DNA of 42,649 nucleotides from Seison nebaliae (taxonomy: Eukaryota): NCBI GenBank assembly GCA_023231475.1, contig JALJEE010000266.1, positions 1 to 42,649 of the forward strand, written 5' to 3'. The notes beneath the pieces were generated by a model. It was not told the DNA's origin. It saw only the letters and a program-made list of their open reading frames with translations, and made no database searches. The position numbers and the translations under genes were made by a program. Positions 2,845-42,649 of this stretch are shown here, one piece after another; position 1 is the stretch's first letter, and every line of letters begins with the position of its first letter.

Positions 2845-3446
2845 ATGAATAAATTATTTAAAATAAATTATCTCCAGAAATTTTCTTCATTACGTTCAAT
2901 TACTACGACATCATCAGTATGTGGTGGTTATTGGAATAAGGATTGGAAACCGGGACCATATCCAAGAACACCAGAAGAGAGAAAAAAAGCAGCACAGAAA
3001 TATGGTTTACTTCCACAAGATTATGAACCGTTTGAAGATGATGGAATGGCACCAGGAGATTATCCTAAATTAGAATTAGTTCCATTTCATCAACGAGATC
3101 CTTATTACAATTGGGATGATCCATGGAGACGACGTGATTGGAATGAACCTGTTCACCAAATGGATTTATTTTGGACATCCGACAAAGGTTTATACTTTTC
3201 TTTCAAATTCTTTCAATTCTTCTAACAATTTCAGGTTATGGTGACACTTATCCATGGAGTACTATGACAATGTTTAAAACTTTCTTATGTTATGCTCTTG
3301 GCATTCCATTGTTATGGTACTTAACACCCAATTTATATATCATGGAACCAGTGATGCCACGACATATGTTTCAAGATTATGTTATCAATCCTGATTTGAA
3401 GAGATATTCTTTCGAATTGACGGATGAGAAATTCAAAGAGGAATAA
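2845..3446 (+). CDS. NDUFB8: NADH dehydrogenase (ubiquinone) 1 beta subcomplex subunit 8; 2 exons (intron 3188-3234)
   Basis: Mitochondrial-transit-like N-terminus, then WKPGPYPRTPEERKKAAQKYGL, PGDYPKL and RDPYYNWDDPWRRRDWNEP motifs. A 47-bp GT-AG intron joins the two ORF-track frames and brings in the TM helix. Confidence 0.95.
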
Positions 3447-3568
3447 GAAATTTTTTAATTTACTTTTTATTATTCATAAATTTTTTTTGAAATTTCTTTA
3501 AATTCGAATTAGAAATTGTCAAATTTTATTGAAATAAATTTTCCATATTAATCAATTAAACATTTGGA

Positions 3569-4169
3569 TTACTTCTTTTCACAAGTTGACTCATGATTGA
3601 CTACTAGAAGTGGATGTAGAACTGTTTGACCTTTTGCTTTACATGTATAACCAGATTGACACGGACAAACGTGTGGATAAATGCTCAGATTTCCATTATT
3701 GTGACTCACTTTACACGACTCATTAGGTGCGGTTAATTTCATACAGAAATCTCCGATAAAACTCTGTCCATCTAAATTTTTATAAATTTTAAATTTCTCC
3801 CGTTCCTTCAAAACTAACTAACTATGATAAGTATAACGTTTGGTAGCAAAATGACGAAGTTCAACACAACATTCATCTTCTGCACAATTCGAATTCGTAG
3901 TACAATGACGGATCTCTCCATTAAACAAATTTCCGAGATGTTTCTGTTGCATAATTTTTGCCAAAGTTCCATCACTGAATGAATTTAAAAAAAATAATTT
4001 TTCATTTTATTTTTAAATAAAACTCTAATACTGTCGCTAGTCCATGAGTTAACGTGTTCAACAAACTATCAATTCCTGATAACGGTTCACCACCACCATC
4101 ACCAAGTCCGTCATCGCCTTCGCAAGAAATGATAGCGATAATGGAAAATAGAACGATCAATCTTTTCAT
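3569..4169 (-). CDS. Secreted prokineticin/astakine (colipase-fold) 10-cysteine protein; 3 exons (introns 3975-4023, 3772-3822)
   Basis: Signal peptide MKRLIVLFSIIAIISCEG, then CTTNSNCAEDECCV...FCMKLTAPNESC...CPCQSGYTC...STC. These are 10 Cys in the prokineticin spacing, and the splice phases are compatible. Confidence 0.8.
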
Positions 4170-5001
4170 ATTTTTTTCTGTTCAAATTATGTTTTATGAA
4201 GTTAAGAATAATTTAATGAATTAATGAAGAGGTGTTTCCATCAGAAAATATTTGGGAAGTTCATGAGAAAGTGAACACACAAGAAGTTTTCACAATTTAT
4301 TAGAATGCAATGGGTAGCAGAATAAAAGTGAATATACAGTTGTAAATCAATTGGACATAAATATGATTAGGAAGAAAATTAAATAATTTTTTAAAGAAAG
4401 AAAAAGAGTGAAATCTTGTAGATCTTCAGTCACATATTCCGATCTTTAGTAGGAATCTCGACTTTCAATTCTAAATGAATGTGAAGAAAATCTGGTAGTT
4501 TCATCAGTTGATTGTTGATCAGAAAAATTAATATATATATCGTTTAATTTATCCCGCCATCAGCTTTCACAAATGAAAGATGAACGTTCGAAGAAGATGA
4601 AATAAGAAAAAATAATTTTTTTTGAAAAATTTGAATGAATGCGATTTTGGATGATAAAGGAAAAATTTGCTCGTTGAATGATTATAAAGGGATCAAGGTA
4701 GCTGTGTTCATGAGTTAAAAAGTTTTTAACGATTATGAATTTTTTTTGAGTGATTTGAATAGAATAATGCTTTGAAATAATAAAGTGAAAGAAGATGATC
4801 TACGAACCAGTAAGAATAACTACAAATTAATAAAAGTCTTTAATTTGAATCTGATATTAATTTGAGAAATTACTGTTACTTTATCGAACTGAACGAATAA
4901 CGAGAATCGGATAAAATACAAAATAAAAATCTTTTCAAATAACATTCAATTGTATCGGAAATTTATTTTATTTTCGTCGTTGTAAACGATTAAGTAATCA
5001 T

Positions 5002-5717
5002 TTATAAATCACTCGGAAAAGGACCAGCAATCAATTTCTTTACAAAACCTTCAATTATATGATATTAGAAGAAATAATTTCCGTCTAGAAAATTCAAACT
5101 TTCGTAATTGAAATTTCCTTCAGCGTCTTCTCGAGTATCAGTCGCCTTCAATAATTCCTCAACTTCGTCTAGCTTTAATTTTTCAGCTACTCAACATAAC
5201 ATTCGGACAGAGTTGAGAGAAAGAATGATGAAGAAATTATTCTAACCCATTGCCACGAGAACTTGAGTCATTTCACAGAGATTCATGTAACCGTTGCCTT
5301 CCTTGTCGAATAGTTTGAGACCTTCGAGAAAGTCGTCACTGGTTCCGAAAGTGGAATCGGGCATCTTGTAAAATTCAGCATAGATGGGGATAAATTCTTC
5401 GAATTTTATCGACTTCTCTCCTTCTTTTTTCGTTTGTCCACGTTTCTCAGCCTGTTCATTGGAGACGTTAATACCTAACGATCTCAACATATCGCCGATG
5501 TATAGACAGTCGACTTTCCCTTCATATCTTTTGTCGAAGACATTGAAGCAATCTTTGGCGTCTATTCGATAGGATTAATATAGAATCATGATAAAAGGAA
5601 AAATGTAGTGAACTATCTTGTTTTTCTTGTGGCAGATCCGACTAATGTTTCGTAGAGATAGAGAGAAATCGTTGTATTTTTAGTGATAAAAATGGAAGAA
5701 GAAGAAAAGCGAACCAT
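5002..5717 (-). CDS. Myosin essential (alkali) light chain, EF-hand family; 5 exons (introns 5642-5714, 5562-5613, 5187-5246, 5049-5099)
   Basis: The spliced product is MSDLPQEKQDNAKDCFNVFDKRYEGKVDCLYIGDMLRSLG...FLEGLKLFDKEGNG...MAEKLKLDEVEELLKATDTREDAEGNFNYESFVKKLIAGPFPSDL. An ATG-only first coding exon is typical of calmodulin-family genes. Confidence 0.92.
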
Positions 5718-7277: not shown

Positions 7278-7714
7278 TTAGAGTGTGGTACAAGACCGTT
7301 TCTCTTTATAAGGGTTCTGACTCTTCACTTGGAATCCAGTACACAGAATATCATGCTCTTCATTTGCCGTTACATAACTAATTAATTGTTGTATCGCCAC
7401 TGAACATGGTATTCGTTCAATATTAGCATGTATTCGAAAATGTTGGACCAATTGTAATAAAGTCTGTTCGGAATAATTAGCACCACCACCTGCATTTGTT
7501 TATTCCCAGATCAGTTCCGATGGAAATAGGAAAGAAACGTTAAATTAATTGTTGAAGAAAAATTGTTTAACCCATTGAAACTTGCACGTCTTCAGCTGAA
7601 TTAAGACGGAATATTATTCGGTTGATAAGGAAAAGTAAGTTTAGGTTGAAAGGAAAGAAGAAAGCAAGATAGTTAGATCATTAGATAAGAAAAGGTAGGA
7701 CGCTAACCCATCAT
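7278..7714 (-). CDS. Heterotrimeric G-protein gamma subunit; 3 exons (introns 7596-7707, 7490-7571)
   Basis: The spliced product is MMAEDVQVSMGGGANYSEQTLLQLVQHFRIHANIERIPCSVAIQQLISYVTANEEHDILCTGFQVKSQNPYKEKRSCTTL. It has GGL-domain motifs (ERIPCS, D.L..G, NPY) and a C-terminal CaaX (CTTL). It is not in the ORF track. Confidence 0.9.
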
Positions 7715-9444: not shown

Positions 9445-9517
9445 CGCCCACCCAGGGGCTCGAACCCTGGACCTTAGGATTAAAAGTCCCACGCTCTACC
9501 GACTGAGCTAAGCGGGC
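9445..9517 (-). tRNA. tRNA-Lys, anticodon UUU
   Basis: Reverse complement is GCCCGCTTAGCTCAGTCGGTAGAGCGTGGGACTTTTAATCCTAAGGTCCAGGGTTCGAGCCCCTGGGTGGGCG. It is a 73-nt cloverleaf with A box, CT-TTT-AA anticodon loop and GTTCGA T-loop. Confidence 0.95.
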
Positions 9518-10076: not shown

Positions 10077-12104
10077 ATGGAATTGTGGGATAATGATGTT
10101 GATGAAAATATTTATAAGTATCAGTTCCATACTTTGAATGATGATGTTAATCTAAACTCCAACTATTGGTCAAACGACGAATGTGATTCACTTGCTCTCC
10201 AATTATATCCTGATGAGAAATATTATTACCTATTCTTACCACTTGGGGACAATACACTCAACATGAGTGAACGGTTGACTCTTCTACAAATTTCTGAGAA
10301 CTTGGCACATAATACACCACGAATGAACTTGAAATGTATATGCGAAACGAAAATAGTCGTGAAAATAATTTGTCTCAGTCAGAAACATAAGGATGCCAAA
10401 GTGAAACTTATCAAATATGATGAGTCTGTCCCATCGTTAATTCCGTCAACAATGAAATTATCTTTCGATTTATTAGAGTCCATCGGATTTTCAATGCCAT
10501 ATCTCTGCAATTTTATTTCGAGCGAAAACGAAGAACTGAAGGAACCGATCGAAACAATCGATATTGATAAATTACTATCTCCGAATTTTATGAGTAATAT
10601 GGCGAAAGAAGAAGAATTGGGCAAATTTCCGTTAAATCCTCCACTCCCATCAAACTATTTTTCATTACCAACTTTGTTGGATCATTCGGACAAAGAAAAC
10701 GAAATTCCTATAGATGACACTAGTAACAAGTTTTGAAATACTTAAAAATATTTTATTCAAATTGTTTTAATAACTTTTTTATTTTGAAGTAGTCCGAAGA
10801 TCGTTCGGAATGAAAAAGGAAAGATTATTCTTCGGTGTCCAAATAAAGTTTTTTTTTAAATTTTATTTAAAACAAATCATAAATTGTTTAATTTAGTACT
10901 GCAATCGGACTTATGTAAGTCGATATGCATTCCAAAAACATCTATCAACACATGAAAACGAAGATTCCGATGTGCCAAAGAGAAGAAGAAAGAAAAAATC
11001 GAAACATTCCGATTGGAAGAAAACATTTAAAGTTTCAAAACTTCTTCCTCCTTTTTTAAAAAAGTTTTTCTCAATTTAGTGTTCTTTATGTAAACGATCA
11101 TTTCGTCATGCTCATCATCTTACTGCCCATGAAAAAATCCACCTGAAACAAGCTCTCCATAGTTGCAATGTATGCCACGCGGATTTTTCAAGGAAAATCC
11201 AACTGAATCGTCATATGAAGACACATGAAGTCGATAACAATGAAACTAAATCGTTTTATTTCTAAACTTTTAATCTTTTGTAACATTTCAATTTATGGTT
11301 TTTTAATTTTTTTACCAAATTAGTCATGGTAAGGAAAATAGTGATAAATTTCTGATGGAGGAACAATTCGATGTAAATGGAATCTTCAATGATAATTTCG
11401 AACCATTCAACATACCAAGTTTTGATGAAGAATTCATTGACGAATATGATAATGATCACTTGTTCATTTCAATTCCTAATACTGATTCGATTATCGATGA
11501 TTTTTATCCATCAACGATCAATGTTGATCTGGAAAATATTTTACCCAACAACGAAATGGATAAGTTTAATTTCATAAAATTACTTTTCTTTTCATTTAAT
11601 CAACATTTTATATTATATATTAGGAACTTTACAACAACGATTCCTCTACCGGATATTGAGAAGGAGAATAATTTGCAAATAAACACATCATTGAACGTAC
11701 TTCCGCAATGTACTTCAACTTCTGAATCTACTACTTCGATATTTTCCCCTAAAATCCTTCCTGAAAATAAAACGAAAGAAATTATTCGCAAAACGAATCA
11801 TCGAATCTTTCAACAATGTATTGAACAACCAAAAAATCATGAATTTCTTAACAAAATCAAACAATCTGGTCAAAAACAATCAACTGCCATTAATGAAAAT
11901 GAAACAAAATCCAGCAACCTTAATTTCAAAAGTGATGGGAATTGCAATGGTACTTCATCCGGTACATCTTCTAAAAGTGAAATTGTAGTTCAGAAAGACT
12001 CACTATCGCCATCAAACAGGAAGAAATATTCATATCCTCCAACTTATGAAGAGTACTACAAAGATCCTCAGATGATCGAAATTGAGAATTTCATTGAATT
12101 GTAG
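10077..12104 (+). CDS. C2H2 zinc-finger protein with three fingers; 6 exons (introns 10730-10789, 10848-10896, 11032-11079, 11253-11323, 11564-11623)
   Basis: Splicing reconstructs CPNKYCNRTYVSRYAFQKHLSTH, CSLCKRSFRHAHHLTAHEKIH and CNVCHADFSRKIQLNRHMKTH, plus a basic NLS (KRRRKKK). Intron 11253-11323 joins in frame to the acidic ORF at 11355. The 3' join is less certain, since an unspliced stop exists at 11263-11265. Confidence 0.8.
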
Positions 12105-12499: not shown

Positions 12500-13834
12500 T
12501 TACATTAAAGCGGTTGCGAATTCTGTTTGACCCGTATTTATAGAGAATGAGTATTCATAAGAAGGCTCGTGGAAGGGAATATTAGAATGTTCAAGAACAT
12601 TTTGGTTGGTAACTTTATCGGGTGCACTACTATCCTTGACTGAGTCTACATAAATGATAGAATCGTTCACTGTCCGTTCGGAACTTGTTTTTTCTTTTCT
12701 GATAAAACTGTCGTGTAACATCGACGTTCGACAGAGTGAAAGTTTAGATAATTTTGGTTCAAATTCTGATGAAATAATGGACATCTAATTCAATGAGAAT
12801 AAATTCATTAGAATTATTATGAAACTTTTCGTCTTTGTTGTATAGGAGGTTTATTCTTAACTATAACATATAAATAGATTTATTAAGAGAAGTGATTAGA
12901 AGAATTAGAACTGTGATGCTTCTCTTGACCATTGAGTGTAACGGGGACGGACGGAAATTGCGACCTAACAAGTATTAAAATAAACGACGTGAAATTGGAA
13001 GGAAAAAGACGAAAATTATTCAATTAATTTGATTTTATAAGATGAAAATCATTGTAAATCAAACGATTCTTTCAATTTGGGAATGTTGTCGATAGCCATT
13101 GTCAGTACATCAGTCGTCTTAGTTGAACATCCTAGCAATATTGGTTTCGTTGTCGATGATTGTTCAATTGTTGTTTTTGATTGTAGATTCATTATCTGTT
13201 TATTTTGAGTTCGTAATAAAGTTGATGAGCCATTTTCATTTTGAAACGATTCTTTAAATTTTGACTCATTATGATTCTGATTTTGTTGACCATTCTGGTT
13301 CGGATCGAAATAACGTTGTTGTTGTTTTAGTTTATTTATTTGAGAAATATTATTTTGAGTATTCGATTTCTTCATAATATTACTGATGAATAAGTTTGGT
13401 TGAGCGATTGGTTGGGCGAGTTCATCGTTGACTTTCGGATAATAGTCTAACATTCGAACTCGATTCGAATTATTAAATGTCATGTTCGGTATAGCTGAAT
13501 CGAAATTGATAGTTTTATAATTTTGTTGAGATTTATGTAAGTTTGGACAGTTAGATATCAGTTTATTAATTATTCCATTTTCAGAAAAATTGATGGACAT
13601 TTTATTCGCGTTGGTTGCCGTTCCCTCATTTTTTTCTACACACATTTCATTCGATTTGTTCATGGGAAGAAATTCTTTTTCTCGGTTTAAAACGAATTCG
13701 AGTTCCCCATCTCTCACGGATGAATTTGTCTTATGTTTGGGAAATATTAATGTAATATCTTTATCAGTAACATCAGGCTTCTCACCCAACTGGTCCAAAC
13801 GACGATTTAAGGACTTGAATTGAAAATTACTCAT
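12500..13834 (-). CDS. Uncharacterised N/Q/S-rich, probably disordered protein; 4 exons (introns 12965-13064, 12861-12911, 12785-12825)
   Basis: The 261-aa and 94-aa ORFs are joined in frame through two small exons by three phase-compatible GT-AG introns. No domain recognised. Confidence 0.65.
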
Positions 13835-14349: not shown

Positions 14350-14884
14350 ATGAAAACTTTGAAAAATTTCTGCGAATTATTCGTAACAATTTTCTTAATA
14401 TTCATCTTCACGTCGGAAGCCGAAGGTTTAGGATGTTATAAAAATTTACCATCTTCCTTTTTCCATCTACTTCTAATATTTTCCTTTATTTTAAGTTGGA
14501 ATGTCGTTAAGTAACTCTGGGGATGATCATGAATATGGTACATATGGAATATCCTCTCCTTTCGGTGGAATAGGAATTAATACGGAAAAATCGGGTTTAA
14601 ATAATATGTTTCATCAATCATCCTTAATATCATGTCAAATCTCCTAATACTTTATAGACTCCAAATATTCGAACAATAACTTTTTTGACACTTTTCGTAG
14701 TTCGATTTTTGACGACTACGCACCCCCAACTCAAATACGTGCGACAAAATCAATGTTAAATATCAATCATCAATTAAACAAATTAAGTCAAAAAAGACAA
14801 GTAGCAAATGCATTTACCCAACAAGAGTTTGGAGATTTGGTCAATGAGTATTCAGCGTCAAAAATGTTGGGCATTCCATTTTAA
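14350..14884 (+). CDS. Small secreted orphan protein, candidate peptide precursor; 3 exons (introns 14426-14495, 14595-14657)
   Basis: The spliced product MKTLKNFCELFVTIFLIFIFTSEAEVGMSLS...LNKLSQKRQVANAFTQQEFGDLVNEYSASKMLGIPF has a signal peptide and phase-compatible introns with CTAAT branch-like motifs. It is not in the ORF track. Confidence 0.7.
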
Positions 14885-14966
14885 ACAAAATAATAAATGA
14901 TTTATTTACTTAAAAAAAATATATTCTGAAAAAAATCAATTTTTTTTGGAATAAAATATTTGTGAA

Positions 14967-15399
14967 TTATATTTCATTATTGTTTGATTTCTCTGAATCT
15001 TTCACTATATTATAAATTGACTGGCTTGTCGACAAGTGAGGATCAACACCAATATTCTCTCGAACAGTATTAACTAAAAAAAGTTTTATATCTTATTTCT
15101 CAAAACAGAATATAACGTAAATCATTATGAATATTCTCCATCAATTCATTAATCTCCTTCTTTCTATTCTCCATCTCCTTAATATTCTCTTCTTCGATTT
15201 TCCTTATATCCTTGTTGAAATTATCGATTTCAGAGTTGGACAATTCAATCGCTGACTTATCTTGAAAATGTGGTAGATGCATATCAATTTCATATATCGT
15301 ACGGTTTATACTATCGATACCATCTTGCATCTGTCTGTAAATCCTAAGTCTCTCACTGTCGTACTCTTGCATTATCTCTTCAACCTTCTCGTCCGACAT
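14967..15399 (-). CDS. Small acidic coiled-coil protein of unknown function; 2 exons (intron 15074-15116)
   Basis: 99-aa E/K/I-rich heptad-like ORF. A 43-bp intron extends it in frame to ...LNTVRENIGVDPHLSTSQSIYNIVKDSEKSNNNEI. Confidence 0.65.
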
Positions 15400-16971
15400 T
15401 TTAATTCTTCTTCACCAAAATACACACGAATTTGATAATGTCAAAATTCCCACGAAAATGAACTGGAAAATTATGTTAAGCTGATATTTGAAAATAGGGG
15501 AAATAGTAAAAATGAAGTCCGCTAAAAACAGAAAGTCTTATTCTAAAATTTCGGCTTTTACATTTATGAACAACTAATAAATAATTTTTTTCATGTTTTT
15601 GATTGTGCATATGGGAATTAATAATCCATAAAAGTAGATGGATTTACAAGGAAAAAATCCGAAGATACTTCAACTATGACGAGACTAATAAGCCACCACC
15701 TAAAATTATTAGGTAGTGTAAAAGTTATTATTATTTATTAATCACAGTGAGTGATAGAAAATTCCCATGAGGGATAAAATTAACGGAAGTAAAAGAAATT
15801 AAAATATAAGTGAGAAGATAAAGGATACGAATAGTCAAGACATCACTCTAACAGACAATCTAATAATCGTATAGAGTGTTGCCGTTTAAGAATTCCGTTC
15901 GAGCATAATCCTGGCATCGAAGAGATGAGGACGAAAATTTGATAGATGAAAATTAGATGGAGAAAAGTTAACAACCAAATTTTTGAACTCACAGAAGATT
16001 TTGTGTCAGATTTGTCAATTTTGTCAGAGGAAGTTGGTGAGAACCGTAGATCATAATAATGTCGAACATGTCCTAGAATCGACTGATCAGTTTCGAGCAT
16101 CTCTACGATTAACGAACCCATTCGTTGAAACGACGGATTCGTCGAAGCTCCATCCAAGATTCTTAAGATCTTCCGTGCAAATATGATCGGAAAAGGAACC
16201 AGATCAGTGAGGGAAAAGAGAAAAGTTCTATTGCAACGACGAAAACAACCGACCAGACGGCCCCGGAGAAGGATCTGTCCATCGCTAAGAAAGAGCTCGA
16301 AGAAGCCACGAAGATGGAATCCAATCCGAGTTATAGTAACGTTTTGTTATTTGAATGTAAACTAGTTCAGAAAATTTTGTCTAGGGGAAACAAAAAGTAA
16401 GAAGAACAAAAATAAGTTTGGTTGTAACAAAGAATATTCGAAAAAGTTCGAATCGATCGATGCGAGATTGTGTGTCCCATAGTAACAAGTCGAAATGTCG
16501 GACGAGGAGTTCATAATTTATACCGATACCTTATAAGTGACCCATAATTACTTATATTCTCAAGTTAAATCCTTCTATTTATAATCACATTTCAACTTCA
16601 GAAGATAAGTTCAACTAGACAAAATAAATTCAAAATATCAACCGGTTGGAAATATTCTTTCAAAGAAATTTATGGAATAGTTAGCAGAAGAATTATAAAA
16701 ATAAGAAAAAAACGGTTGGGAGAAGGTATTGTTAGACATCCTTTGTTAAAAGTTAAACATCTTCTATGTACATGGTCGATATCGTTTTCTTCCAATTTCA
16801 ATGTAAATTTTTCAATAATGTGCAGTATTATTCGAGTGTTTGATGGTTGAATAATCTTGTTGTGTTAAGTAAGAATAATTCAAACTATAAACAACAATAA
16901 ACCAACATCGATTTTATTATATTAAGAATAAAAATCATTCACAACCTTTCGAAAACGATTTCATTCCAATT

Positions 16972-17655: not shown

Positions 17656-18274
17656 ATTGAATAGTTTATGGATAAATTTAAATGTTTCCAAATAATTTAT
17701 TTTCAAATAAATAATTTTAGTCTTTTCTTTAGTCACAATAAGTCCCATACTTTATTTTAATATACTAACATAATAGCATATTCTCAACTAATAGAATCAT
17801 CACTAGAACCAATTAACAATTTATTGAAGAAAAGTAGAAGTCGAACCTGTACGTAGAAAATAATGTAATTATTCCCAACCAACTAACGGTGTAAATACAT
17901 AAATTGTTTTGCACTATTTTCCGCCTTTTCTGGACCGGAAGTTCAATAATAAAAAATGGTAATAAAAAATAATTGTTATAATTGTAAATATCTCATATCA
18001 ATCTCAAATTGAATAGTATTTCGCACTTTTAATTAAAATTATTTAATTTATCTTATTAATTAATTTAGGTCGAATGAATTTGACTGCGGAATAAACAATA
18101 TAGATTAGTTTCAGAATAATGACTTTTAACGGCAATAAAAGCTTAAAATGAAGGAATTGTTTTGAATTCAAACATAATGGAATTCCTCAAAAATTTTTTA
18201 ATTTAAGCTTAATTAGATTATTAATTGGTTTTGATTAATAATAAACATGAGATATTTACAACAAATTTGAGAAA

Positions 18275-26828: not shown

Positions 26829-29800
26829 TATCTTTTATCTGTTTTTTTACTATCACCGAATCGGTTATGATTAAATGTTTATTAAACTAACCGTTTACAT
26901 GGGAAATTTCCATTTCATAAAGTTATTTTCGATTTCGTTAGAAATTTTATGAAAAGATCATGATGTAAGCATTACATCCAAATGCTAATCGATTTTATCA
27001 TTTTTTGAAATTTAATTAATATTTTTCTACGGACATTTATTCCACTTCTTTCCCTACCGATGAAATTGCTTATCATTTAATTATCTCATCAGTTAAATCA
27101 TTGTTTACATATCTCATACATAAGCAATATTTTTCATCAATCATTCAATCTATCAATCAAATGATCATTCTTCTGATTTAATTAGAGATATGTCAGTCCG
27201 ATTTTCTTTTATGCCATATTATATTATTAATAATTAATTTTTTCACCATTCCAATATAATTCATAATGAAAAATACTTTGATTACATTTCATTAATTTAA
27301 GAAGTCTGAATTAACCAAACTAGACAGAACAGTATGAATTACCAATGTTGGACTTATTCTAGACATTAATGATGTGCATTTCTCATTATTTTGCTCATCT
27401 GTAAGACATAATAATGTAGTTGTAACGATCTTTATGACGTATGTTTCCGGAAATTCCTGACAATAAGAAACTACTGGATGTTTCGAAAGAATAATGGGAA
27501 AATTTATCATGATTTTAATGATTTTCGTCTATTTACGTTAATGAATGGAAAATGAGAGATATGGTCGAATGAGGGATGTACTGTAAAAACCGAAGTAAAT
27601 GGTGAAAGTTATCAAACCTAGAATATTAAGTGGAAAGTATTATCATATTAAATTTTCTATTATTCAATAAAAGTCTTCTCTTTCTTCCTCGTCTTTCCTA
27701 TTTACATCAGTCGTCATCATTTTATTGAGTAGAATTCACTTCAGTACTCATTCGGTTTTCTCTTTTTCTTCTTTTTAAGTTTTCTTCCATCATCATTTTC
27801 CTTATGCGCTTCTTCTTCTTCTTCACAATTTGACGTTCAACATCTTTTATAGTTTTAATGTTTCTTTAAATTCTTTTACTTCATGTCTCCCGTCATTCCT
27901 ATATTCTTCTTCATATTCTCTATGAGAAGATGTTTGAGAAAAGTACCACTTTAAATTATATGCAAATAATATACTTTCTCTCAAACTTTCTAGTCTTTTT
28001 CATTACTGTAGATGTTACGTGATAATTATGTAACACATAACTTTTCATATTACGATAACTTGTAAAACATTCTCTCATTGTTCTTGATCGATCTTGAATT
28101 AATTCAGTTCAATTTCAGAATTTCACAGTAAAACTTTTGTCGCTCATCTCTGATCAATTGTCCCATTTAAAATTTTTGACAAGTGTGCATAATGTCCCCA
28201 ATTGTACCTCCCACTCAATTTATCTATTATTAATCACCACTGAGGTATACTCTCTCAACCAATGTCTCACGATAATGACTATAGAGATTTTCGTTGAAAA
28301 TGCTTCTTATTCTTTCATCCATGCAAATAATCCATGTAGGCAGTTGACAGAAATAAGCACTAACAATTTCTTTCCTATTAGCTATTTTCTTCCTCTGTTT
28401 TCGAATGTTATAATCATTCATAAGAATGTTCTCTTTCTTCTTGTCCTCTTCGATTTTCTTCCTCTTTTTTTGCTGGTGTTTATACTCCAAAATGCAAATT
28501 ATTCACTTCATCATTGTAGTGTGCATGAATATTTTATGTTTGTAAACATTCTTTCCGAATCTTCTACAGAAACTGTACAAGTCACTCACTTTCTTTTTGG
28601 AGGAGACTTGTCTGAACTACTATTACCTACAAAATTCCCATTTATTCAGTCTGTTATTTCCTATAAAGCACTTTCTCTCCACTTTCTCTTCTTCATCATC
28701 ACCTTATTTACAGTTCAATATTATCGATTATATATATAACGAGGATGAGGATGATGACGATTCAGTTCTTTTTCCTCGGTCTGTCTCCTCTCTGATTTTA
28801 AACGTCATATAAGTAACATTTCTCCAGTTAGAAGGAGTGTTAGGAAGTTGAATAACAAAATTATTTTTAATAAATTCAGAAATAACTGATTTTAAATGTT
28901 TTCTTTCCAATTCGTTTATTCGTTGTGCAATTTGCTCAACTTTTTTTCTAAACCATGGATGTCATGCCTTCTATATTAAGTATAAATAATCTATATCAGT
29001 TGACATCATCTCATTTTTCACAACTATTTTTAACACTCGTTTGACCATTTTATTATTATCTAATCCCGAAAATGTTTTTGTTATTACGTAGGTATCTGCT
29101 AGGCTTAAATGATAATAATACATCGTAAGAAATTCAAATTATTTCTTTGCAATATAAATAGTTGGAATGAGTTATAGAATAATTATTTATATAATATGTT
29201 CTTATTTTCAATCGTAATTGCATAATTTGAAAAGAAAAAGATTTAATTTTTTAATATGACGATTACCTTCAAACTCTTTATTCAGATATTCAATCGACAT
29301 CAAAACATTGAAATGTTTCTTATCAATTTTGATTAAAATTGTTGTATTTTGAAAAAAAATTATTGAAATAATAAAAAAAGGAAGGGAAATAGAGAGAAAG
29401 ACACATAAATTTGATGGAGGACAGGAAGACTGATAAGATTCATTTGTGTATCGACTTCGAATTAATATTCTTCTATTTTTTTATGTATATCATGAGAACG
29501 ACATATCGCTAGAAAGTTGGGAAACCTTGAGAATCTTGCTAAACATCGTAGGTGGTCAGTTTCATCCTTGCCCCTACATATATCTGTTTTATATGATTAT
29601 TATATCTTATAATTTGTATAAGTATGTGTTTGAAGAAATAAAGATAACGACCTTCCTGATAGGAAGATGATTTATTTTATTTCATGACCAAAAATACGAA
29701 CAATGTGTGGGCGATAAGAATATTGGGAAATCTGATTGATACATTATTGGTGGACATACATGTATGTGTCACCGAATAAAGTCGTATTAAAACGAAGAAA

Positions 29801-30255: not shown

Positions 30256-33200
30256 ATGCATGGAAGGGAAAATTCGGAAAATTGGATGGAAGATAATGGG
30301 AAGAGTTCGCATTGCCGATATAAGAAGAATATTTCTAACATATCATCATCACCATCATCAACTACATTCGTTAAATCGAATGTAAATGCGCTAACTAGAA
30401 CTTCATCTGAAATCCATTCATCAATTCCAGAAACTTCGATTTTATCTTATTCGACTCATCCATTAACGAACACAACATCATTCAAATCGACTATGATGTT
30501 GAAAGGAACAATATCCGATGGTGTTTCTTCTCATCATTCTAATGATGAAAGACAAAATAAAAATCGTTCTCAGAGACCCTTTAATCAACTACCGACAACT
30601 AAAGTGAAATATTTCCGAGATCTATTACGACAAAGATCTACTACTAATAATGAAATCAACAGCAATACGCATAATAGTAATAGTAATAGTAGTGTTAGTG
30701 GTGGAACGAATGAACATCCATACTCATTAGCTAAGACGACTTCATTAAATTTCCATAATCAAAATAATAAAATGAATATGAATATGGAGAAGCAGAATGT
30801 GGAGCAATCGACCTACGATGTCACATTTATACACATTGCACCAAATGCATCATTCCAATATTTTGATGGTGGGAAAGTGACTTCGATTAAAGGGCCCAAA
30901 ACATTAAAATTGGGATCGTGCGATGTACCGGTGAATGAGAATGGTTATTGTGATTCAATGGACAACATTCATTGTTATGACAACGAACAACAATATCATC
31001 AGAATGATCAAAATAGAAATAGTCTAACTAAAACGAAATCGTTGAATGTGGTGGATCCGAAGAATGAGAACGTTCAATTCATTCCTCGTATTCAACATAT
31101 CATCATTGACGAATTAGATGATAATGTTAATGGATATTCTGTAACTTCCAAATATATTAGTGATAATACTCTGCCATATGTGAAGAATAATGCATCATAT
31201 GATGTCGGCTATTTGGGAACATACGACCGACAAAAGAAACCGGTGAGGAAAGCGTTGTCGAATAAAGTGAAATGTCTCAATCAAACGAAAAGTAATAATC
31301 AATATAATCGACCGAAACGTTCATACACTCAATCGTTTAGTGATCAGAATGATCAATGGATGTTAGGAATGAATCCAATCGAACATATTGGAAATCATCA
31401 ATTCTATTCGATGAGCGAATTACAAAAATTATTAGAGAATTCAAATTCTGACCTTCAATTATCGTCCTCAACCGTTACCACGACAAAAACTACAACAGTT
31501 GCTGATCGATTTGTACAGAGTACTGGTAGTCTCACTAGTCAAAATGAGATTGTGAATTGTTCAAATTCCTCCACAATATCCTCTATCAAATCTTCGACGA
31601 ATAATAATATTCCTGATCAATATTATTCGTCTTATCACCATTATCATCCTCCCACTCATCATAATTATCAACATCATCATCAATACAATCAATCCACTCA
31701 ATCACATGATCATCATCATCATCATCACCAACATCATCATAACAATGATCATCATCTGAATAATCGACATCAATATCAACAACAATCAAGGAGAAAATAT
31801 AATCAATATTCACATTACAATAACAGTAATAATAATAATAATAACGTCAGCACAAATAATAACAATCATGGAGAGAATGGTAAGATTGGACTGAAAAGAC
31901 CAAAACAAGCCACGTTCGTTTCAACACCGGCATCTTCAATTTTGACATCTGGTGTCGATGTTGAGTCTCCTATATCATTCCATTCTATCACTTCCGAAAT
32001 GACGAATTGTAGCGACGTTGAAGATGATGAAATAGAAGGTAGTGATATTCAATTTGTAAGAATATTTGGTTTCAATCATTTCTTCTTCATCTTTACTCCA
32101 CATGTGAATTCTGGTGTCTTTTCTCTCATTCTTTTCCATCTTCTTCTTTGGTCTTCTTTCCACTATATAGTCAAGTTTTCTCTCTTTCTACAATTCAACT
32201 TTTGTCGTTCGTAAATATCGAGAAGCTTAAGGATTTGTGAATAAGTGGAAAATAAGTTTCTTTCTTCGAAGAAAATTTTAAAATTTTATTTGTCCTACTG
32301 AAATCTACCTTCGTTTTATTCATCTTTCCTTCCTTCCTTCCTTTCCTACTGGTATGTTGACTTGACATATTTGCTAAATCTTCTTCTGATATTATTCTTC
32401 TTTTCTTTTTTTCAATGAAAATTTTTTTATTCTTAAACAATTTGTTTTAAGAAAATTTCTTCATTTCCTCAAATTCAAAATTATCTAAAACTTTCTTCTT
32501 TTTTTCAGATAATCAACTATCAAATCAAACTGTTCTCCCAAATAAGTTGAATCAACCCACAAATTACACAAATTCCACTCACGATACATCACCGAATGTT
32601 TTGGAAAAGAATCAACAAACAGACCAACTCGATCGAGCATTATCATCAAACGCTCCCATCGCATTAAGCACATCAGTGGAAACATTAGCAAGTTCGAAAG
32701 ATCTCCCAATCACAAAGAGTAATGTCAATGCTTCTAATTCGATGACTCCCACATCAACAACTTCTTCATCGTCTACAACCATCATTTCATCACCTACGGA
32801 TAATAATATGGATGAAAATAATAATATGATGCATTATTTCCATCATACAGTCCCTAGCGATTCAACTCAACTCAATAATGTTTATTCGAATTGTAATTTG
32901 GGTGATTCAGTTTTTTACGTTTCTTCCCAAGCTCAAATGGATTCGATGAACGATCAACAATTACCTTCTATAGAGAATGGAAGTGAAGAGTTGGCTGTTC
33001 CAATGTACATTCCTGAATATCCTCCTATTATGGATCATAATGCACTTCAATATCCATCGAATTATTGTCCAGGTCAGTTTAAATATTTTCTCTTTTAAAT
33101 TCTGAAATATGTCGCTTATAATATGTCATTTCTATCTTATAATTCTATTGGAAAGTTATCTTTTTAATTTTAGTTGAATTAGAATTTTCATACAGTTCTT

Positions 33201-36200
33201 ACAAATTCATCGTTAAATTAGTCAAAGGCACATTGTTGATTTTATGGAATTTGATGATGACGTGTCAGTGACGTATATTTAAAAAAATTTAAGCTTTAAT
33301 TTATTTAGAAGATGAATATTTTTTTTATTATTTCGAGAATAAAATAAGAAGAAGAATACATAAGATATAAGAAATAAAGAGAAAGTAATGAGAAAAAAGT
33401 GATTTAATTAAATGAAGTTCAGACAATAAAAGAGAAAAGAAGAAATAAGAATAATTTTCAATTCGATTCAATAATAAATTCATATTTTCTTCTTTTGTTC
33501 AATTAAATGTTTGGTGGTTAATTTTTGTAGATATGACCACGATGTACAATCATGAATTAATGGAATATGTTAAGTCTCTATCGAACGATGAAAGAAACGA
33601 GTTGACGAGATCGTTGAATGATGTGAAGGATATTCATATCGATGAAATAACATCGGTATCCGTTCGTTTTTGGTTGCCACTTCCCAACATTTCAACTGAG
33701 TCGCTGACAATTTTAAAGAAGATTTATGAGCAATCTGGAAATAATTCGGATGTTCCTGAGAATGATATTATTAGGAATCTTGTTCAATATCGAATTAATG
33801 TTTGGGAAATTCCATCGGTTGATGCCGAACTCGCTCTCCTTTATCAGAAGAAAAGATTCATGTTAAAAGAGGAGAAGAATGAAAAAGAAGAAGAAATGTT
33901 GTTCAATTATATTATGAATTCAACAAATACGAATTCATCAAAGAATTATGTTCATCATTCGACTACATTCTCCAACAATTCTACACAAATTAGAAAAAAA
34001 GAGTTGAAAGAATTGATAGATGAATTTGAAGGAGAAACATCTACGAGTCAATTGAATGAGAAAATAAAAAAATTGACACGTGACAACTTTCCAATTCACG
34101 CCAATTTCTTCGAACATTATTTGAGTGGTAAAACGATTTCCGTTTGTCTCAAAGATTTTCAACCATTTACTTCTTATTTTGCAAGAATAACAATCGCAAT
34201 ACCCGAAATTGGAATTCTTCATGTTCAAAATTATTTCCAAACAATTTCTTTCTTCATGACACTTCCCACGATACCTTCGATGCCATCACATGTTTATACG
34301 TCATCATCGTTGAATATGCCACAATGTTTAACTAATCGCAATTTGTCATCCAGTGTAACTTTAGGTGAAGTGAATGTTATTACACCAACATCTCCTTCCC
34401 GGACGAATGGAATCGATTCGGATAATGATAAATCAGCAAGTTGTTTAACGACGAATACGAATGAAATTGAAACACAACCAAAACAGCAAGCACAATCACC
34501 GAGATGTTCTGAGAAGAATGATGAATTAATTCCATCGAATGAAATGGAACAATATCATGTGCCTACCAATTCTCTCCATAGTATCCTGACGAGTTTGCGG
34601 AGTAATGCAGAAAATTTATTATATTTGTGTTATACGTCGACTCCTCTCCAGATCGTTTGGGATATTATTAAACATACAAAAGATTTTACTTCTCCAGATT
34701 CGTTGAAGACATTACATGTCAATCCGAGAGATGATGTTTTAGAGAAAAGTAATTCTCGTAATTCAATTAATGTTCGATGGACAGCTACATTACATGATAA
34801 TGGTTCGAAAATTGAATATTATCAATTGGAATATTGTACTCAGAAATCATTCATTTCTGCTTTTATCAAATATTGTCAACGATTAATGAAAAGAGAAGGC
34901 GCAAGTGTTTATCAAGATTTGGAAGATTTGAAAGTGGATTTCCTAAAATCATTGAACAAAGACTTATGGCAAGTTGTCGATTGTAATACAAAAAGATCAT
35001 GGCAAATTACTAATTTATTAGCAGATACAGTTTATATTATTCGAGTGAAATGTAAAAACTTTTATGGACACAGTGAATACAGTTGGCCACTCTATTGTTC
35101 AACTGCCCCACCTTTGCCGAAAGTTCCCGGACCAATCGAAATTCAATCAGTGACTATGACAGAAATATCGTTGTGTTGGGAACGAGACGATTATTGTGAT
35201 GTGGTCCAATTTGAATTACAAGTGAAAGACGAGTCATCAGGACATGGATTCATTTTTGCATATACCGGCGAAAATAATGAAAATATCGTAAAGAATTTGA
35301 GAAGAAATTCTCCGTACGAATTCCGTTTACGAGCAAGATCATTAGGTGGAACGAGTGAGTGGAGTGAAACGATGAAAATTTTTACACAACCAGATGCTCC
35401 TGACGCTCCCAAAGTTCAAAAACATAAATTGAGAAATTATACTTTGACGCACACGAATTTGAATCAATTGTGTGATGAAAGTTTCTATTCGTATTCAGCC
35501 GAATTATTTTGGAATGCACCAAATGACACGGGTGGATTACCAGTTGATAAATATATGGTAGAAATACGAAAGAAAGATGATCGTCGTTGGAATATGGTGT
35601 ATGATGGAAAGGAGAAAAATTGTGTATTAAATTCATTAATTCCGAGTAGCACATATGAAATTCGAATGAGTTGTACGAACGAACGTGGATGGAAAAGTAA
35701 TTGGTCTGAACCGACATATCAATTGAAGACGAAAGCATCACCTCCATCACCACCATCTCCTGGATTTATTAATCGTGAATTATATCGACGTCTTGGATTA
35801 CCAATTCCTCAATGTCGTACGAGTGATAATTCGAATGGTAATAATGAATGTAATACGATCGATCTTCATAATGATTGTGTTCATATCAAATGGTTAAAAA
35901 GTAAATTCAATGGAGGACAAGATGGACAAATGTTTATGGTCGTTCAAGAATCAATAGGAGAAGAATCGAATGATATTAATCGATATAAAATATGGAAAGA
36001 ATATCAGAAGAAATGTAATGATTCTTCTCAATTCTTTCAAATAGTTTATAAAGGAAAAGAGAATTTTTGTTCGATTCAAAATCTCCTCCCAAATCAACAT
36101 TATCTCTTCCGTATAAGTGCATCAAATGATTTTGGTAATTCTTATTTTAGTCTTCCATTACGTGTCAACACATTACCATTCGCACCAGATCCGCCCGTTG

Positions 36201-39093
36201 ATCTTTCTTGTTCTTTCGAAGCAGGAACCAGCGAAATGGTGGACGATCCGACCATCAAAATGGAGAATGAGAATACGACGAAAAGTAATTTCGAGAGATT
36301 TAATGAAAAATTAATGAGACTTATTCAATTGATTAATGAGAATGATAAAGATGATGGAAATCGATTATTGAATGAGTTATTGGAATATAACCAGATGAAG
36401 GACGAAACACAATACAAAATTGTGTTTAGTTGGATGGCACCAAAACGGAATAATGGTAAACCCATTGTCTCATATCGATATCTGATGCAAGTGAGATTGA
36501 TTAATAATAAGAATAATTCTAATTCAACATCCTCTTATACGATCGGTCAAAATGAAATCGAATGTGAGAATGACGAAATGAATATGGTGAAATATTTTAT
36601 GAATTTCAATTCGACAATCGATCACGCATCTTTCCAAATCCAATCGAAGAATGAATGTGGTTATTCCACAGTGAATTCAATCCAATTACCGAAACAATAT
36701 CTCTCTACAATCATTCCACAACCATCGTCACTTCAATTTATGAGAAATCCGTCGACGAATGATTCGATGAAAAAGAATTTTCAATTTCAATTCAAATTGG
36801 AACATTCCGAATATCGACCTCTACTCTTCATCATCTATCTGCAACATTCCAGTTGGAATGGTGATGTTCGTTCTGATAATAAGAATCAATTTATTATTTC
36901 GAAACTTCACACAAATTTCCGTTTACTCATCAATATGTCACTAATTGACAAATTGAAATTACCAAAGAAATATTTGAACTTCTTCAAACATCAGTCAATT
37001 AAACATTATGATGATTCATTGAAATTATCTACTAAACATTCCGATACATATTCCATCATACTATCTCAATTAGATGAAATGTCATTATATTCTATTCGCA
37101 TTTCTACATGTTATTGGAATGATGAAATGGAAACATTCCAATTGTCTTCATTCTCCGAATTTTATCATAATCGCATCGATGAAGTAAACAAATTGGAATA
37201 TTTCAAGGGAAATGATTTATTTGATTCCTCTTGTAATTTCCATAATATTCTTCGATCCATCAAATTAAGTTCGAACAATTCGAAAGAGAATAAATCGAAT
37301 GAAGAACATTTACAAATGACAAATCGATTAGATAAAGAAGAACGTTGTAAATCATTCCTTAACGGTATCATCTTCACAACACCAATTAATGAATTACATC
37401 CACCCAAACTTACCGCCAATTGTTCTCATCGATATATTCGATTGTTGTGGCCGAACATGAATGAAGAGAATCATAATTCTAAATCTATCCAACACGATTC
37501 GAATGACGAGAAATGTATGGTGGTGAGAAGTAAGGAGGAATGGAAATTAGATACGAAATTGTTTGTGACAATACAACAGAAATTGAATGATGACTCACCA
37601 TCTGAAGAGATTCAGATTCTTGATAAGTTTTCATTTTTTTCTCATTTTCATTATTTCTTATTCAAATAGATATTTGACGATTGTGGATCGTAGTGAATTA
37701 AATAATTACAAGTTGAATGGATTACAAGAGAATAAGAAATATGAATTCCGAATTCGAACGGAAACTCTCGATGATTTTGGTGTTTGGAGCGAATGGTTCC
37801 AATTTCAAACGACAAAACAAATTCCTGTTCCACCCAAAGGTTTCATTCATAAATAATTAATAAATAATATTTATATTGACAATGAACTTCTAGGAAATAT
37901 TAATATGAAACAATTAGATTCTAATTCCATCGATTTGTTATGGCAACCTTCCTTAATGGTTGATGATACTGAACAATTAATAAACACTGTTATCTGTTAT
38001 GAATTACAATTCCAATATGAATTGCTTTCTCATAAACATCACGAACAATTATTCTTACAACAACAACAATTGCGACCACAACAGAAGAAAAATAAAAAGA
38101 AGAAATCAGGAAAAACGACAAATATGGAAGTTGTGGAGAAATTGTTGACGAATAATAATTATCCAAAATTTTCATTTCAACCAGTTAAATTTTTTTATCC
38201 TCAAATTGGATTGACAATAATAATATTTTTTCAAATTTTAGATATATTATGGCGGTGACACATCATTCCAAATGGAATTGAAATATTTACCATCGATGCC
38301 ATTCAATCTGATAAAATATCTTTTACAAGATGAGAATGTGCAATTACAATTGAACGTTCGTATACAGAGTGTACGAGATGATGAAATTAGAAGTGCTTGG
38401 TCATCAATAACACATATACCGGTTGACTATTCCAGACTAGCAATTTCTCTGCGACAAAATGATGATGAAATTATGACGATGCAACATTCAAAATCGATGG
38501 ATTGTCTCAATGATGATCTATCCAACAAATGGAAACAATCTAATGAGAATTTTAATGAATTATTAGATATCAATTTCAATCCATTATCTAATAACAATCA
38601 TTATCATCATCAACAACAACAACAACAAAATAAACAACAATCTTTGTCCACAAACAATTTGAATAGTAATAGTTTTGGAATGAAAAAAAAGAAAAACATT
38701 TATCAACAACAACAACAACAGCAGCAACAACAACAATTTACTCGTTCTCAAATTGTTCGATCAACGAACAATGGAACGTTAATTCGACAATCACCAGCTC
38801 AACAGCTGAAGCGTCGTAAGAATGTTAATAATCATATTCCATCGAAATCGATTGATGGAAAAAAGGTGAATGATAAGGATGATGATCAATCAGTTAATAA
38901 TGGAATGGATCTCTCTCAAACAGTCCGAACTTTTATTACGATATTAGTCCGATTATTTACATTAACATTTTGGAAACGTCAATGGCGTCGTTTCTGTTCT
39001 TCACTGGGCACATACGAAGCTCTCTTCATCAAACTATTCGTCTTTTTTATGGCTTGTTATGTTCTGATTAATTTCTGTTTGAAATGGATCTAA
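30256..39093 (+). CDS. FNDC3: Fibronectin type-III domain-containing protein 3 (FNDC3/mtgo-like). Exons ~30256-32038(?), 32509-33072, 33531-37626, 37670-37839, 37894-38183, 38242-39093
   Basis: N-terminal VTFIHIAPNASFQYFDGGKVTSIKGP resembles the conserved FNDC3 VILV.VNPGE.F...GP motif. It has multiple FN3 repeats (DNGSKIEYYQLE, SGHGFIFAYTGE, LRRNSPYEFRLRA, DTGGLPVDKY) and a C-terminal TM tail anchor. Later introns are phase-compatible; the first donor is ambiguous. Confidence 0.88.
31636..31868 (+). repeat. Coding CAT/CAA/AAT microsatellite-like tracts (poly-His/Gln/Asn) in FNDC3
   Basis: (CAT)n and (AAT)n runs encode HHHHHHQHHH and NNNNN. Confidence 0.8.
38611..38736 (+). repeat. Coding (CAA/CAG)n polyglutamine tracts in the last FNDC3 exon
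   Basis: A Q6 tract and a Q11 tract are encoded by CAA/CAG runs. Confidence 0.85.
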
Positions 39094-40715: not shown

Positions 40716-40889
40716 AAAAAATAATATTTATCAGTTTACTATGCAGTTCAATTACGTAAATGGGAAAGTGGTTAATTGTAAATATTTTATATTAAATTCA
40801 AATAAACTGATGGAATTTGGAACATTTTCATAATAAATCAATATTTCGCTCAGAAAAAATTTTGGTTATATAAGGTGGAAACTTTGAAC

Positions 40890-41168
40890 CTACGACCAAT
40901 ATGGATAAGGAGGAGGAGGAGGAGCTGATTGCTGATGTTGTTGCATAAGCATCTGTTCTAATGCCATTGTTTGTAGACTTTCTTGATGGCTCATTGTATC
41001 CAATTGAGCAAATAAGTCAGATCTTCCAAATTGGTCATCGATACTCGCTAATTCCATATTGAAACCGGTGTCATCCGCATGTTTGATTTCTCCAAAAAAA
41101 CCCGAAAATGCCTCAGTTCCACTAATAGCCAGAATTCCAATTGTTAATAAGATAAATGAAATTTTCAT
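40890..41168 (-). CDS. Small secreted orphan protein (92 aa) with a Q-rich and PPPPPYPYW tail
   Basis: Clear signal peptide MKISFILLTIGILAISGTEA. A splice-acceptor-like TTTTTTAACAG lies 1 nt before the ATG. Confidence 0.7.
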   Translation of the reverse strand: MKISFILLTIGILAISGTEAFSGFFGEIKHADDTGFNMELASIDDQFGRSDLFAQLDTMSHQESLQTMALEQMLMQQHQQSAPPPPPYPYWS

Positions 41169-41560
41169 CCTGTTAAAAAAATTCTATAATATAATTTTCA
41201 ATTTCAAATTCTTTTTATTTATAAAAATCACTTTCATTAAAAAGTAGTTAATTTAATCACATACCTATATTATTAGATGTCATCAAATGTTAATTTATGG
41301 AATAATTTCTATAAAATTTTCTACTTGTCAATTCTCATTGACAGTAAAAAGCATATCAAACTAATTTGATATTAATAATTAGACGAATAACTTAAATTGA
41401 AAATGAATGATAATATTTTTGTTAATATTATTATTTCTTTAAAACTCAACTCAATAATTTTATTTTTATGATAACTTAATTTTCTGAATTATAGAGAACT
41501 TTATTGAGCATTAATAAGATTAGAATTCATTCGTTACGAAGATTTTTAAATTAAACATTT

Positions 41561-42649
41561 TTAAGATCCACAACTCTTACAGGAACATTTGGTTGGTATA
41601 TTTAGTGTCTGATATTTCAATGAGTCACCATCTGAACAAAGTACCTCCACTCTTTCCTGTCGATATCCATCTGGTACACAACAAGAACAAGATTGAAATT
41701 TAGATTTGGTTTCATTAATTTCTTCATTTCTACCATTCTTAGATAAGAAAACCGTGGTGACCATTTGTTTATCACATGAGCCTTCGCAAACATATTGTGG
41801 AATTGCATTCTTAGTACGACATAACCCATCTTCTGACCATAAAGGTTTAAGCATCGTTGAAGTTAAACTACATGTTCCATTATCTCCAATCTCAGGGGAA
41901 TAAAATAATCTCGATTGGCTGTTCTTCATATTATCATTATTATCTAATTCACACGAGAAATATTGACATTTTAAACAACCATTTATACACTTACATTTCT
42001 GATTCTTCAAACAGTTAGTCTTCTGTTGACTTGGTAGCAAAATATCTCCGTTCCAGATACACGTGCATTGATCCTTCGGTATACATTGGCCTCCAGATAA
42101 AACTAAACCAGTTGGACAAACGCATCCGGACATACAGTTTCTGACAACGCTTAAGTCTTTATCTGCACTACAGTACTGAGTCTGACAAGTAACATTTTGA
42201 TCAATATTAACACAATTGTTAAATTGAAGACCTTTCGTAGCGCAAAATTTTGTCCCATATCTGGTTTCATCAAATTTCAAACCATTAGATGCCCCACATG
42301 AAATTTTTCCCACACAAAGTCTTACATTTGATTCATTTTCAGCTAAACAAATTTCAGGACCCTGAAAAGTAGAAAAACCCAATTCCAATGAGCATTGTTT
42401 ATATGTTGCGGAACATTCTGACCATGTGGAATCTTTCAAAAATAGTTAGTAGTGAACTATTTTCTCAATAATCGAACTACCAACTTTCACATGAGAAATT
42501 TTCTGGTGAAATCAACATTCTTCCTTGTCCTGGAGCAGGTGTAGTTTTCATTAATGTGAAAGTTCCTACGTCTGAAAATGTTTAGTTATTTGGAAATATA
42601 TTTGCAATTTTAAACTTGCAGTTGGTTGACTAAATTGCATTGTAGGTTG
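41561..42649 (-). CDS. 3' part of a mucin/vWF/SCO-spondin-like extracellular protein (TSP1-like, TIL, VWC-like, C-terminal cystine knot); 5'-truncated by the window; introns 42572-42615 and 42433-42484
   Basis: STWSECS (TSP1-like), CMSGCVCPTGLVLSGGQCIPKDQCTC (TIL), CKCINGCLKC (VWC-like) and CEGSC...CSCCVP...VLC...IPTKCSCKSC (CTCK). Confidence 0.85.

Follow-up and report, generated by a model that had tools for sequence, protein, structure and literature searches.

Recognition of a 5′ splice site involves a handover between small nuclear RNAs (snRNAs): the donor pairs with U1 first and then with U5 loop 1 and the ACAGA box of U6, where intron position +3 comes to lie opposite U6 G44 (PMC11732430). 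Among animals a purine at +3 has been held to be a near-universal trait of donors; rewritten donors have so far been reported mostly from intron-poor protists and yeasts, with few co-evolving sites. The one characterised lineage with U at +3 that we found is Entamoeba, an intron-poor protist whose GT-AG introns carry a near-invariant +3 U within a strict motif (97-98% GUUUGN) and whose GUUUGU donors are faced by a U1 that reads ACAAAC (10.1101/2022.06.08.495308). In the Saccharomycotina, which are intron-poor fungi, a switch from +4A to +4U has been linked to METTL16 and SNRNP27K (PMC10581693): METTL16 methylates U6 A43, opposite +4, and among yeasts the absence of this gene is associated with a lost +4A (PMC10581693, PMC11732430). 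An animal with a genome-wide change of splice signals has also been described, the tunicate Fritillaria borealis, which has abandoned GT/AG in most introns, keeps the U1 5′ end and METTL16, and shows reduced U6 N6-methyladenosine (m6A) (PMC13326754). Here we describe a donor pattern in Seison nebaliae: on a contig of 42,649 nucleotides (nt; JALJEE010000266.1, hereafter the window, the one sample behind all the Seison donor statistics below), all 30 short introns recognised begin with GTT.

Seison, a marine, epizoic animal, belongs within Rotifera-Acanthocephala; its genome is compact, at about 44-46 megabases (31.9% GC in assembly GA2; PMC8351084). Its short donors share with those of Entamoeba the GT-AG ends and the near-invariant +3 U (30/30), but this is an intron-rich animal in which only GUU is fixed: T stands at +4 in 16/30, G at +5 in 10/30 and T at +6 in 7/30. 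As in the Saccharomycotina switch, METTL16 is scored missing and the preference for +4A is lost, whereas in Seison it is +3 that has changed, +4U shows no enrichment and SNRNP27 is still present. Like Fritillaria it is an animal, and unlike Fritillaria it keeps GT-AG and fixes the third base instead. No description of Seison splice sites, or of an animal with a majority of GTT donors, was found in the paper listings searched, most subscription journals lying outside them; a keyword search in two surveys (PMC11347168, PMC10599564) returned neither Seison nor GTT.

The GTT-donor feature is confirmed on this contig. All 25 donor hexamers listed by the initial annotation, which was made from the sequence alone, occur at their positions and on their strands, and its tallies recount exactly (T at +3 in 25/25; G at +5 in 7/25; A, G and C at -1 in 14, 8 and 3). 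Five more introns, described below, are also GTT. The broader statement that all introns use GTT is correct for the short ones (41-112 nt, median about 52; GTT in 30/30) and fails for two long introns (>400 nt) of an FNDC3-like gene, placed by a protein model, neither of which has a GTT donor (0/2), so the full tally is 30/32. It is highly probable that GUU is the rule for short introns throughout the genome.

Independent support for the junctions comes first from RNA. Trinity transcripts aligned by GMAP are tabulated in Additional file 2 of PMC8351084, where contig k141_1965 has the coordinates of the window; counts taken from that table rest on the matches listed and are lower bounds. Transcript gaps hit at least 14 of the 25 donors exactly (3822, 4023, 5099, 5246, 5613, 5714, 7571, 7707, 12825, 12911, 13064, 15116, 37627 and 42484), and they define the five introns missed initially (donors 12598, 16428, 17593, 17846 and 29701, all on the minus strand). 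All 19 RNA-defined donors are GTT; they come from at least 20 distinct gaps, donor 12825 being joined to two acceptors, and each of the 20 admits exactly one GT-AG placement. The initial annotation had worried that its orphan-gene models might be biased, a worry that the transcript-defined junctions settle. Three of the new introns come from spliced transcripts in which the longest frame beginning with Met has 34-42 codons, and the reading frame is therefore no source of bias there. The matches listed include no transcript rows for NDUFB8 or for the zinc-finger gene, and none for the gene at 14350-14880 or for the 5′ part of the FNDC3-like gene.

The second line of support is protein. Deposited proteins mapped residue for residue give 13 of the 25 donors, eight of them beyond the transcript set, and each junction mapped in this way has a single GT-AG solution (among them one intron in NDUFB8, three in myosin light chain and three short ones in the FNDC3-like gene); for donor 5714 the protein contributes only its N-terminus, M-S-D, after a first exon that consists of the ATG. 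Transcripts and proteins together support 22/25 donors, leaving 14426, 14595 and 42615 as models. A gene finder blind to +3 picked 14595 and 42615, which is weak support: it recovered 22/25 donors, but among 73 predictions that are mostly wrong-strand noise, and 0/5 of the new introns. An exact deposited-protein match was absent for 5 of the 10 candidate single-exon frames tested, so further introns may be hidden.

How far does this run exceed composition? T follows GT in 41% of the 3781 GTs of the window, and GTT makes up 23/53 of decoy GTs near true donors and 21/35 of GTs inside introns, whose bodies are U-rich and G-poor (46% T, 6.3% G). The probability of 19/19 GTT is 3e-8 at a background of 0.40 and 6e-5 at 0.60, that of 30/30 is 2e-7 at 0.60, and used donors differ from decoys at p=5e-6 (Fisher). 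The preference is also specific for U among pyrimidines: GTC donors number 0/30 among short introns, though in the controls GTC accounts for 26-34% of GTY (P 1e-4 to 3e-6). The background comparison on window GTs thus bears out the initial claim of a near-invariant +3 U, and A, as frequent as T at +4 to +7, never occurs at +3 of a short intron.

The flanking positions are more mixed. The initial annotation spoke of a lost consensus at +4, +5 and -1; this is right for +4, which carries no signal (A in 7/30), and overstated for the other two, which are weakened and still present: G stands at +5 in 10/30 against 6.3% in intron bodies (p=9e-6), and a purine at -1 in 24/30 (p=0.002). Two further positions are A-rich, exonic -3 (18/30) and +6 (17/30, p=0.004). 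Short donors match the standard U1 target at a mean of 3.8 of 9 positions. What these donors share with usual U2-type donors is the GT-AG ends, YAG-rich acceptors (25/30) and the residual +5G and -1 purine; what separates them is that 15/30 have neither -1G nor +5G, that 0/30 have a purine at +3 and that +4A gives no signal. Donors in a shifted register (GTT-N-N-GT) were also considered and rejected, with +6G in 2/30 and +6G followed by +7T in 0/30, while +5G reaches 10/30.

The introns are GT-AG spliceosomal introns of the major (U2) type that fail the purine-at-+3 consensus. GT...AG ends are found in 20/20 transcript gaps; a U-rich tract and YAG are present at the acceptor, whose -3 base is T in 18, C in 7, A in 5 and G in 0 of 30; and a candidate branch-point motif, YTRAY, lies 8-45 nt from the intron end in 16/30 (raw count). 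A purine at +3 (GTRAG) occurs in 0/30 short introns and in 1/2 of the long, protein-only ones. None of the 32 donors reads RTATCCTT, the U12-type donor motif; ZMAT5, a gene that returns below, encodes a U11/U12 protein. As a separate observation, the acceptor is AAG in 5/30 short introns and GAG in none, and at 10789/10792 the deposited model takes AAG despite a TAG 3 nt on.

A comparison with related taxa points the same way. A metagenome scan with light-chain alignment gave 17 loci (L001-L017) that are bdelloid-like by protein identity, the light chains of the intron-bearing loci being 78-96% identical to the Adineta vaga query. Nine were aligned, leaving out L003, L004 and L008 as near-copies and L011-L015 as intronless matches, and all nine have one intron at the same position with a GTA donor. 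A neighbouring gene common to L001 and L009, presumably a P-type ATPase judging from its sequence, adds six more intron positions; gene-finder predictions were counted only where alignment A2 confirmed them. With L002 dropped as a copy, 13/17 donors are GTA and 4/17 GTT, from seven positions only; A stands at +4 in 12/17, and on average these donors agree with the standard U1 target at 5.9/9 positions. Seison differs at +3 (Fisher p=1.6e-4, a comparison restricted to the two bdelloid-like loci with several introns). The relatives share short (about 50-68 nt), AT-rich introns and some GTT donors with Seison, but there GTT is a minority that is always compensated, with AG before the junction and G at +5 in 4/4 cases. 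On these sequences, GTT appears to be a tolerated, compensated minority in the relatives and a rule without compensation in Seison. In L001 (7300-8900) the orthologous gene cleanly lacks three introns that L009 (1-1720) carries, through intron loss or gain.

Some evidence on the splicing machinery comes from the BUSCO table in the supplement of PMC12256650. There, among 25 syndermatan genomes, S. nebaliae is the only one with METTL16 scored Missing, the gene being present or fragmented in the other 24. SPF45, too, is scored Missing from this genome only; U5-40K is Missing in Seison and in one bdelloid, and ZMAT5 in Seison and both acanthocephalans; SNRNP27, PRP6, PRP31, PRP3, SF3A3, SLU7, Dim1, ZMAT2 and Sm proteins are Complete in Seison, and no U1 proteins are among the BUSCO matches listed (PMC12256650). 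A loss of METTL16 in Seison is likely on these scores, which make it a lead and not proof.

Given a near-invariant, U-specific +3, the donor would need a U-specific partner. The +3 U is likely read by a changed spliceosome. As to mechanism, we tentatively place first a U1 snRNA that has an A facing +3, the Entamoeba arrangement, combined with METTL16 loss and intron definition. Such a variant U1 would make three core pairs, at G+1, U+2 and U+3. Loss of METTL16 would leave U6 A43 unmethylated and so remove selection for +4A, and the short, compositionally distinct introns may supply, through intron definition, the information that weak flanks no longer carry. Compensated U1 is ranked first because Entamoeba, with its ACAAAC arm, is the precedent, and an A or a U-specific pocket is favoured over U6 G44 as the partner of +3 because G44 could pair with C as well and there are no GTC donors among 30. 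The initial annotation had also offered length-driven intron definition. In its pure form this drops out: it cannot yield +3 U, nor can a purely composition-driven definition.

Several points weigh against a compensated U1 with METTL16 loss. First, the standard U1 arm is kept in most of the atypical-donor lineages reported (69/69 yeasts, Thecamonas, Micromonas, Giardia, Trichomonas), and also in the tunicate F. borealis (PMC13326754). Second, a U1 matched to +3U would still leave many donors at 3-4 pairs, T at +4 shows no excess over the intron background (p=0.26), and the long-intron donor 33073 fits the standard U1 target at 8/9 positions with C at +3. Third, the window yielded no U1, U5 or U6 genes in Rfam scans run with gathering and with E-value thresholds, and the evidence comes from one contig only. 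Fourth, Seison lacks 356/954 BUSCO genes, 76 of them on its own branch, and a score of Missing for METTL16 is therefore weak evidence; SNRNP27 is retained (PMC12256650). Saccharomyces cerevisiae is without METTL16 and uses GUAUGU, so METTL16 loss alone would not suffice for +3U.

A real possibility, ranked second, is that a standard U1 pairs weakly and +3 U is selected at the handover to U6 and U5, or by a changed U1C, LUC7, PRP8 or SNRNP27. It stands close behind a compensated U1 because other lineages have usually turned out to keep their U1 arm. In its U6 variant, an unmethylated ACAGA box would pair with GUU(U)G, and U+3 would form a wobble opposite G44. METTL16 scored Missing only in Seison suits this idea (PMC12256650), as do the position of +3 facing G44, where A or G interact weakly (PMC11732430), and the remark in the Entamoeba preprint that U6 ACAGA could be a better pairing partner for GUUUGU (10.1101/2022.06.08.495308). 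The A-rich exon ends, with their -1 purines, suit the U-rich loop 1 of U5, and the C at +3 of donor 33073 would pair with G44. Plain G44 pairing, however, does not predict the absence of GTC donors; +4U shows no enrichment; and yeast, which lacks METTL16, still has +3A.

The two long introns raise a third explanation, that donors fall into two classes by length: short GUU donors read through intron definition, and a few long ones of the form AG/GURAG (the slash marks the exon end) read by a standard U1 copy. Both lie in the FNDC3-like gene and are known from its deposited protein P0130 (2584 aa, amino acids, beginning at 30256), and both were missed by the initial annotation: 32039..32508 (+, 470 nt) has the donor GTAGTG and 33073..33530 (+, 458 nt) the donor CAG/GTCAGT. 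Both are thus AG/GT and non-GTT, one being the 8/9 match named above, and on other contigs about 7% of the transcript gaps listed (8/122) are 100 nt or longer. We nevertheless consider this explanation unlikely. It rests on two introns in protein models, neither of which has RNA cover among the transcript matches listed. Donor 32039 has an in-phase GTT alternative 30 nt downstream, at 32069, and the 30 nt between them look exon-like (6 G, against 1 G in the next 30). Donor 33073 has no single-intron GTT alternative; GTT solutions exist with a hidden 17- or 29-nt exon. Introns of 100 and 112 nt, moreover, are GTT. The FNDC3-like gene itself (30256-39093, +) starts about 3.3 kilobases upstream of what its long exon suggests and has long, low-complexity N-terminal exons.

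The other gaps on those contigs (114/122 of those listed) are shorter than 100 nt, with a median of 51. GMAP coded 106 of these 114 as deletions and not as introns, a tally that is uncalibrated and was not counted as support. Deletion coding would point to a poor score under the aligner's splice model.

That there is no special reader, and that AT-rich mutation pressure, relaxed donors and the sampling of one contig produced the run, is very improbable. GTT is indeed frequent within these 46% T intron bodies, and GTT donors already occur in bdelloid-like loci (4/17), but the run remains far outside chance at the 0.60 background, the neighbouring +4 shows no like excess, A is common from +4 to +7 and never found at +3, and the equally AT-rich bdelloid-like loci prefer GTA. 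Equally improbable is an origin of the introns from a single Introner-like mobile element that spread recently and happens to have GTT ends. Such an origin would fit the four Seison light-chain introns, all of which lie away from the one position used by the bdelloid-like orthologues (0/4). But similarity among the 30 introns stays at the level of shuffles (best pair score 30, shuffles 31.7 +/- 2.4), there are no terminal inverted repeats (3.80 against 3.79 in shuffles), and most junctions lack flanking direct repeats. Introner signatures (similar intron families, terminal repeats) were rejected on these shuffle-equal scores.

If the genome-wide reading is true, a changed U1/U6 rule can sweep an intron-rich animal genome, not only those of intron-poor protists. 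An intron-rich animal that fixes +3 U would make the co-evolution of splice signals and snRNAs testable with a public assembly, RNA sequencing, two strains and related rotifers. The apparent loss of METTL16 would add a natural experiment on animal U6 m6A, and Seison is possibly an animal that lacks this mark. For annotation, splice models trained on other animals would be expected to misjudge Seison donors. The fullest version, in which Seison is the first animal whose 5′ splice code has been rewritten across the genome, with nearly all introns of roughly 11,500 genes GUU, a compensatory U1 arm and METTL16-dependent U6 methylation lost, is doubtful as a whole.

The individual introns are as follows, beginning at the left of the window. 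NDUFB8 has one intron (3188..3234, +, 47 nt, GTTTAT), on which the deposited protein P0001 maps exactly; its first exon is 100% identical to the Seison nebaliae protein SNEBB_007647, and the contig is the source of three further deposited proteins. A cysteine-rich, secreted-type gene has two, both transcript gaps: 3975..4023 (-, 49 nt, GTTTTA) and 3772..3822 (-, 51 nt, GTTAGT). In the myosin light chain, intron 1 follows the ATG (5642..5714, -, 73 nt, GTTCGC; transcript gap and the N-terminus of P0121), and introns 2 to 4 are given both by transcript gaps and by P0121: 5562..5613 (-, 52 nt, GTTCAC), 5187..5246 (-, 60 nt, GTTAGA) and 5049..5099 (-, 51 nt, GTTTGA). The G-gamma gene, with its Pfam G-gamma domain in exon 3, has intron 1 at 7596..7707 (-, 112 nt, GTTAGC), from split transcript rows, and intron 2 at 7490..7571 (-, 82 nt, GTTAAA), from a transcript gap.

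The C2H2 zinc-finger gene had been modelled initially with five introns, and that model is identical to the deposited 579-aa protein P0280, which thereby places all five on the plus strand: 10730..10789 (60 nt, GTTTTG), 10848..10896 (49 nt, GTTTTT), 11032..11079 (48 nt, GTTTCA), 11253..11323 (71 nt, GTTTTA) and 11564..11623 (60 nt, in frame and stop-free, GTTTAA). An orphan gene on the minus strand contains 12965..13064 (100 nt, GTTTGA; split transcript rows), 12861..12911 (51 nt, GTTCTA; transcript gap) and 12785..12825 (41 nt, or 60 nt with the alternative acceptor 12766; GTTTCA; transcript gaps), and transcript isoform 345_i2 adds a new alternative intron inside its last exon (12523..12598, -, 76 nt, GTTCTT). 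The gene (12302-13910, -) has several isoforms, which differ in the acceptors 12785 and 12766, 19 nt apart, in the last-exon intron and in retained introns.

A small secreted-type gene carries 14426..14495 (+, 70 nt, GTTTAG), a reading-frame model only, and 14595..14657 (+, 63 nt, GTTTAA), a model with which the +3-blind gene finder agrees. An orphan coiled-coil-like gene has a transcript gap at 15074..15116 (-, 43 nt, GTTATA). Among the new introns, transcript 340 gives 16381..16428 (-, 48 nt, GTTACA), and transcript 347, which is likely a non-coding antisense transcript, gives 17546..17593 (-, 48 nt, GTTTGT) and 17803..17846 (-, 44 nt, GTTCGA), the latter being the sole GT-AG placement, 2 nt off the GMAP gap. 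This transcript (17331-17924, -) is spliced twice, has no long reading frame and runs antisense to the end of a plus-strand open reading frame (ORF) at 16891-17655. Transcript 335_i2 gives 29656..29701 (-, 46 nt, GTTCGT), which is retained in another isoform.

The three short introns of the FNDC3-like gene are 37627..37669 (+, 43 nt, GTTTTC; transcript gap and P0130), 37840..37893 (+, 54 nt, GTTTCA; P0130) and 38184..38241 (+, 58 nt, GTTAAA; P0130). At the right end lies a gene with a cystine-knot (DAN-like) domain by Pfam. Its intron at 42433..42484 (-, 52 nt, GTTGGT) is a transcript gap, and the one by the contig end, 42572..42615 (-, 44 nt, GTTTAA), has an acceptor that fits the end of a transcript row and a donor that is a model only. 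A label of "prokineticin-like", proposed initially for one of the conserved proteins of the window, was not confirmed, single exons giving only a weak Colipase_C match (E=0.042). The transcript of the cystine-knot gene (41508-42649, -) resumes on contig k141_1837 directly past acceptor 42572, and the gene therefore runs beyond the window.

Other features of the window include two G+C-richer clusters of short direct repeats near the contig start, at 1-160 and 502-607 (units of 20-24 nt and 15-16 nt). An intronless SPRTN-like gene (8258-9187, +), with Pfam SprT-like and SPRTN_ZBD domains, was deposited twice with different starts, as proteins of 309 and 187 aa. The low-complexity ORF at 24579-26828 (+, 749 codons) is partly transcribed (24622-25016) and matches no single-exon deposited protein from the two starts tested; it may hide further introns. 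A transfer RNA gene lies at 9445-9517 (-), its anticodon read by eye as TTT (Lys). Finally, 40155-40715 holds an element resembling a miniature inverted-repeat transposable element, with perfect 33-nt terminal inverted repeats 495 nt apart and an inner 50-nt inverted repeat.

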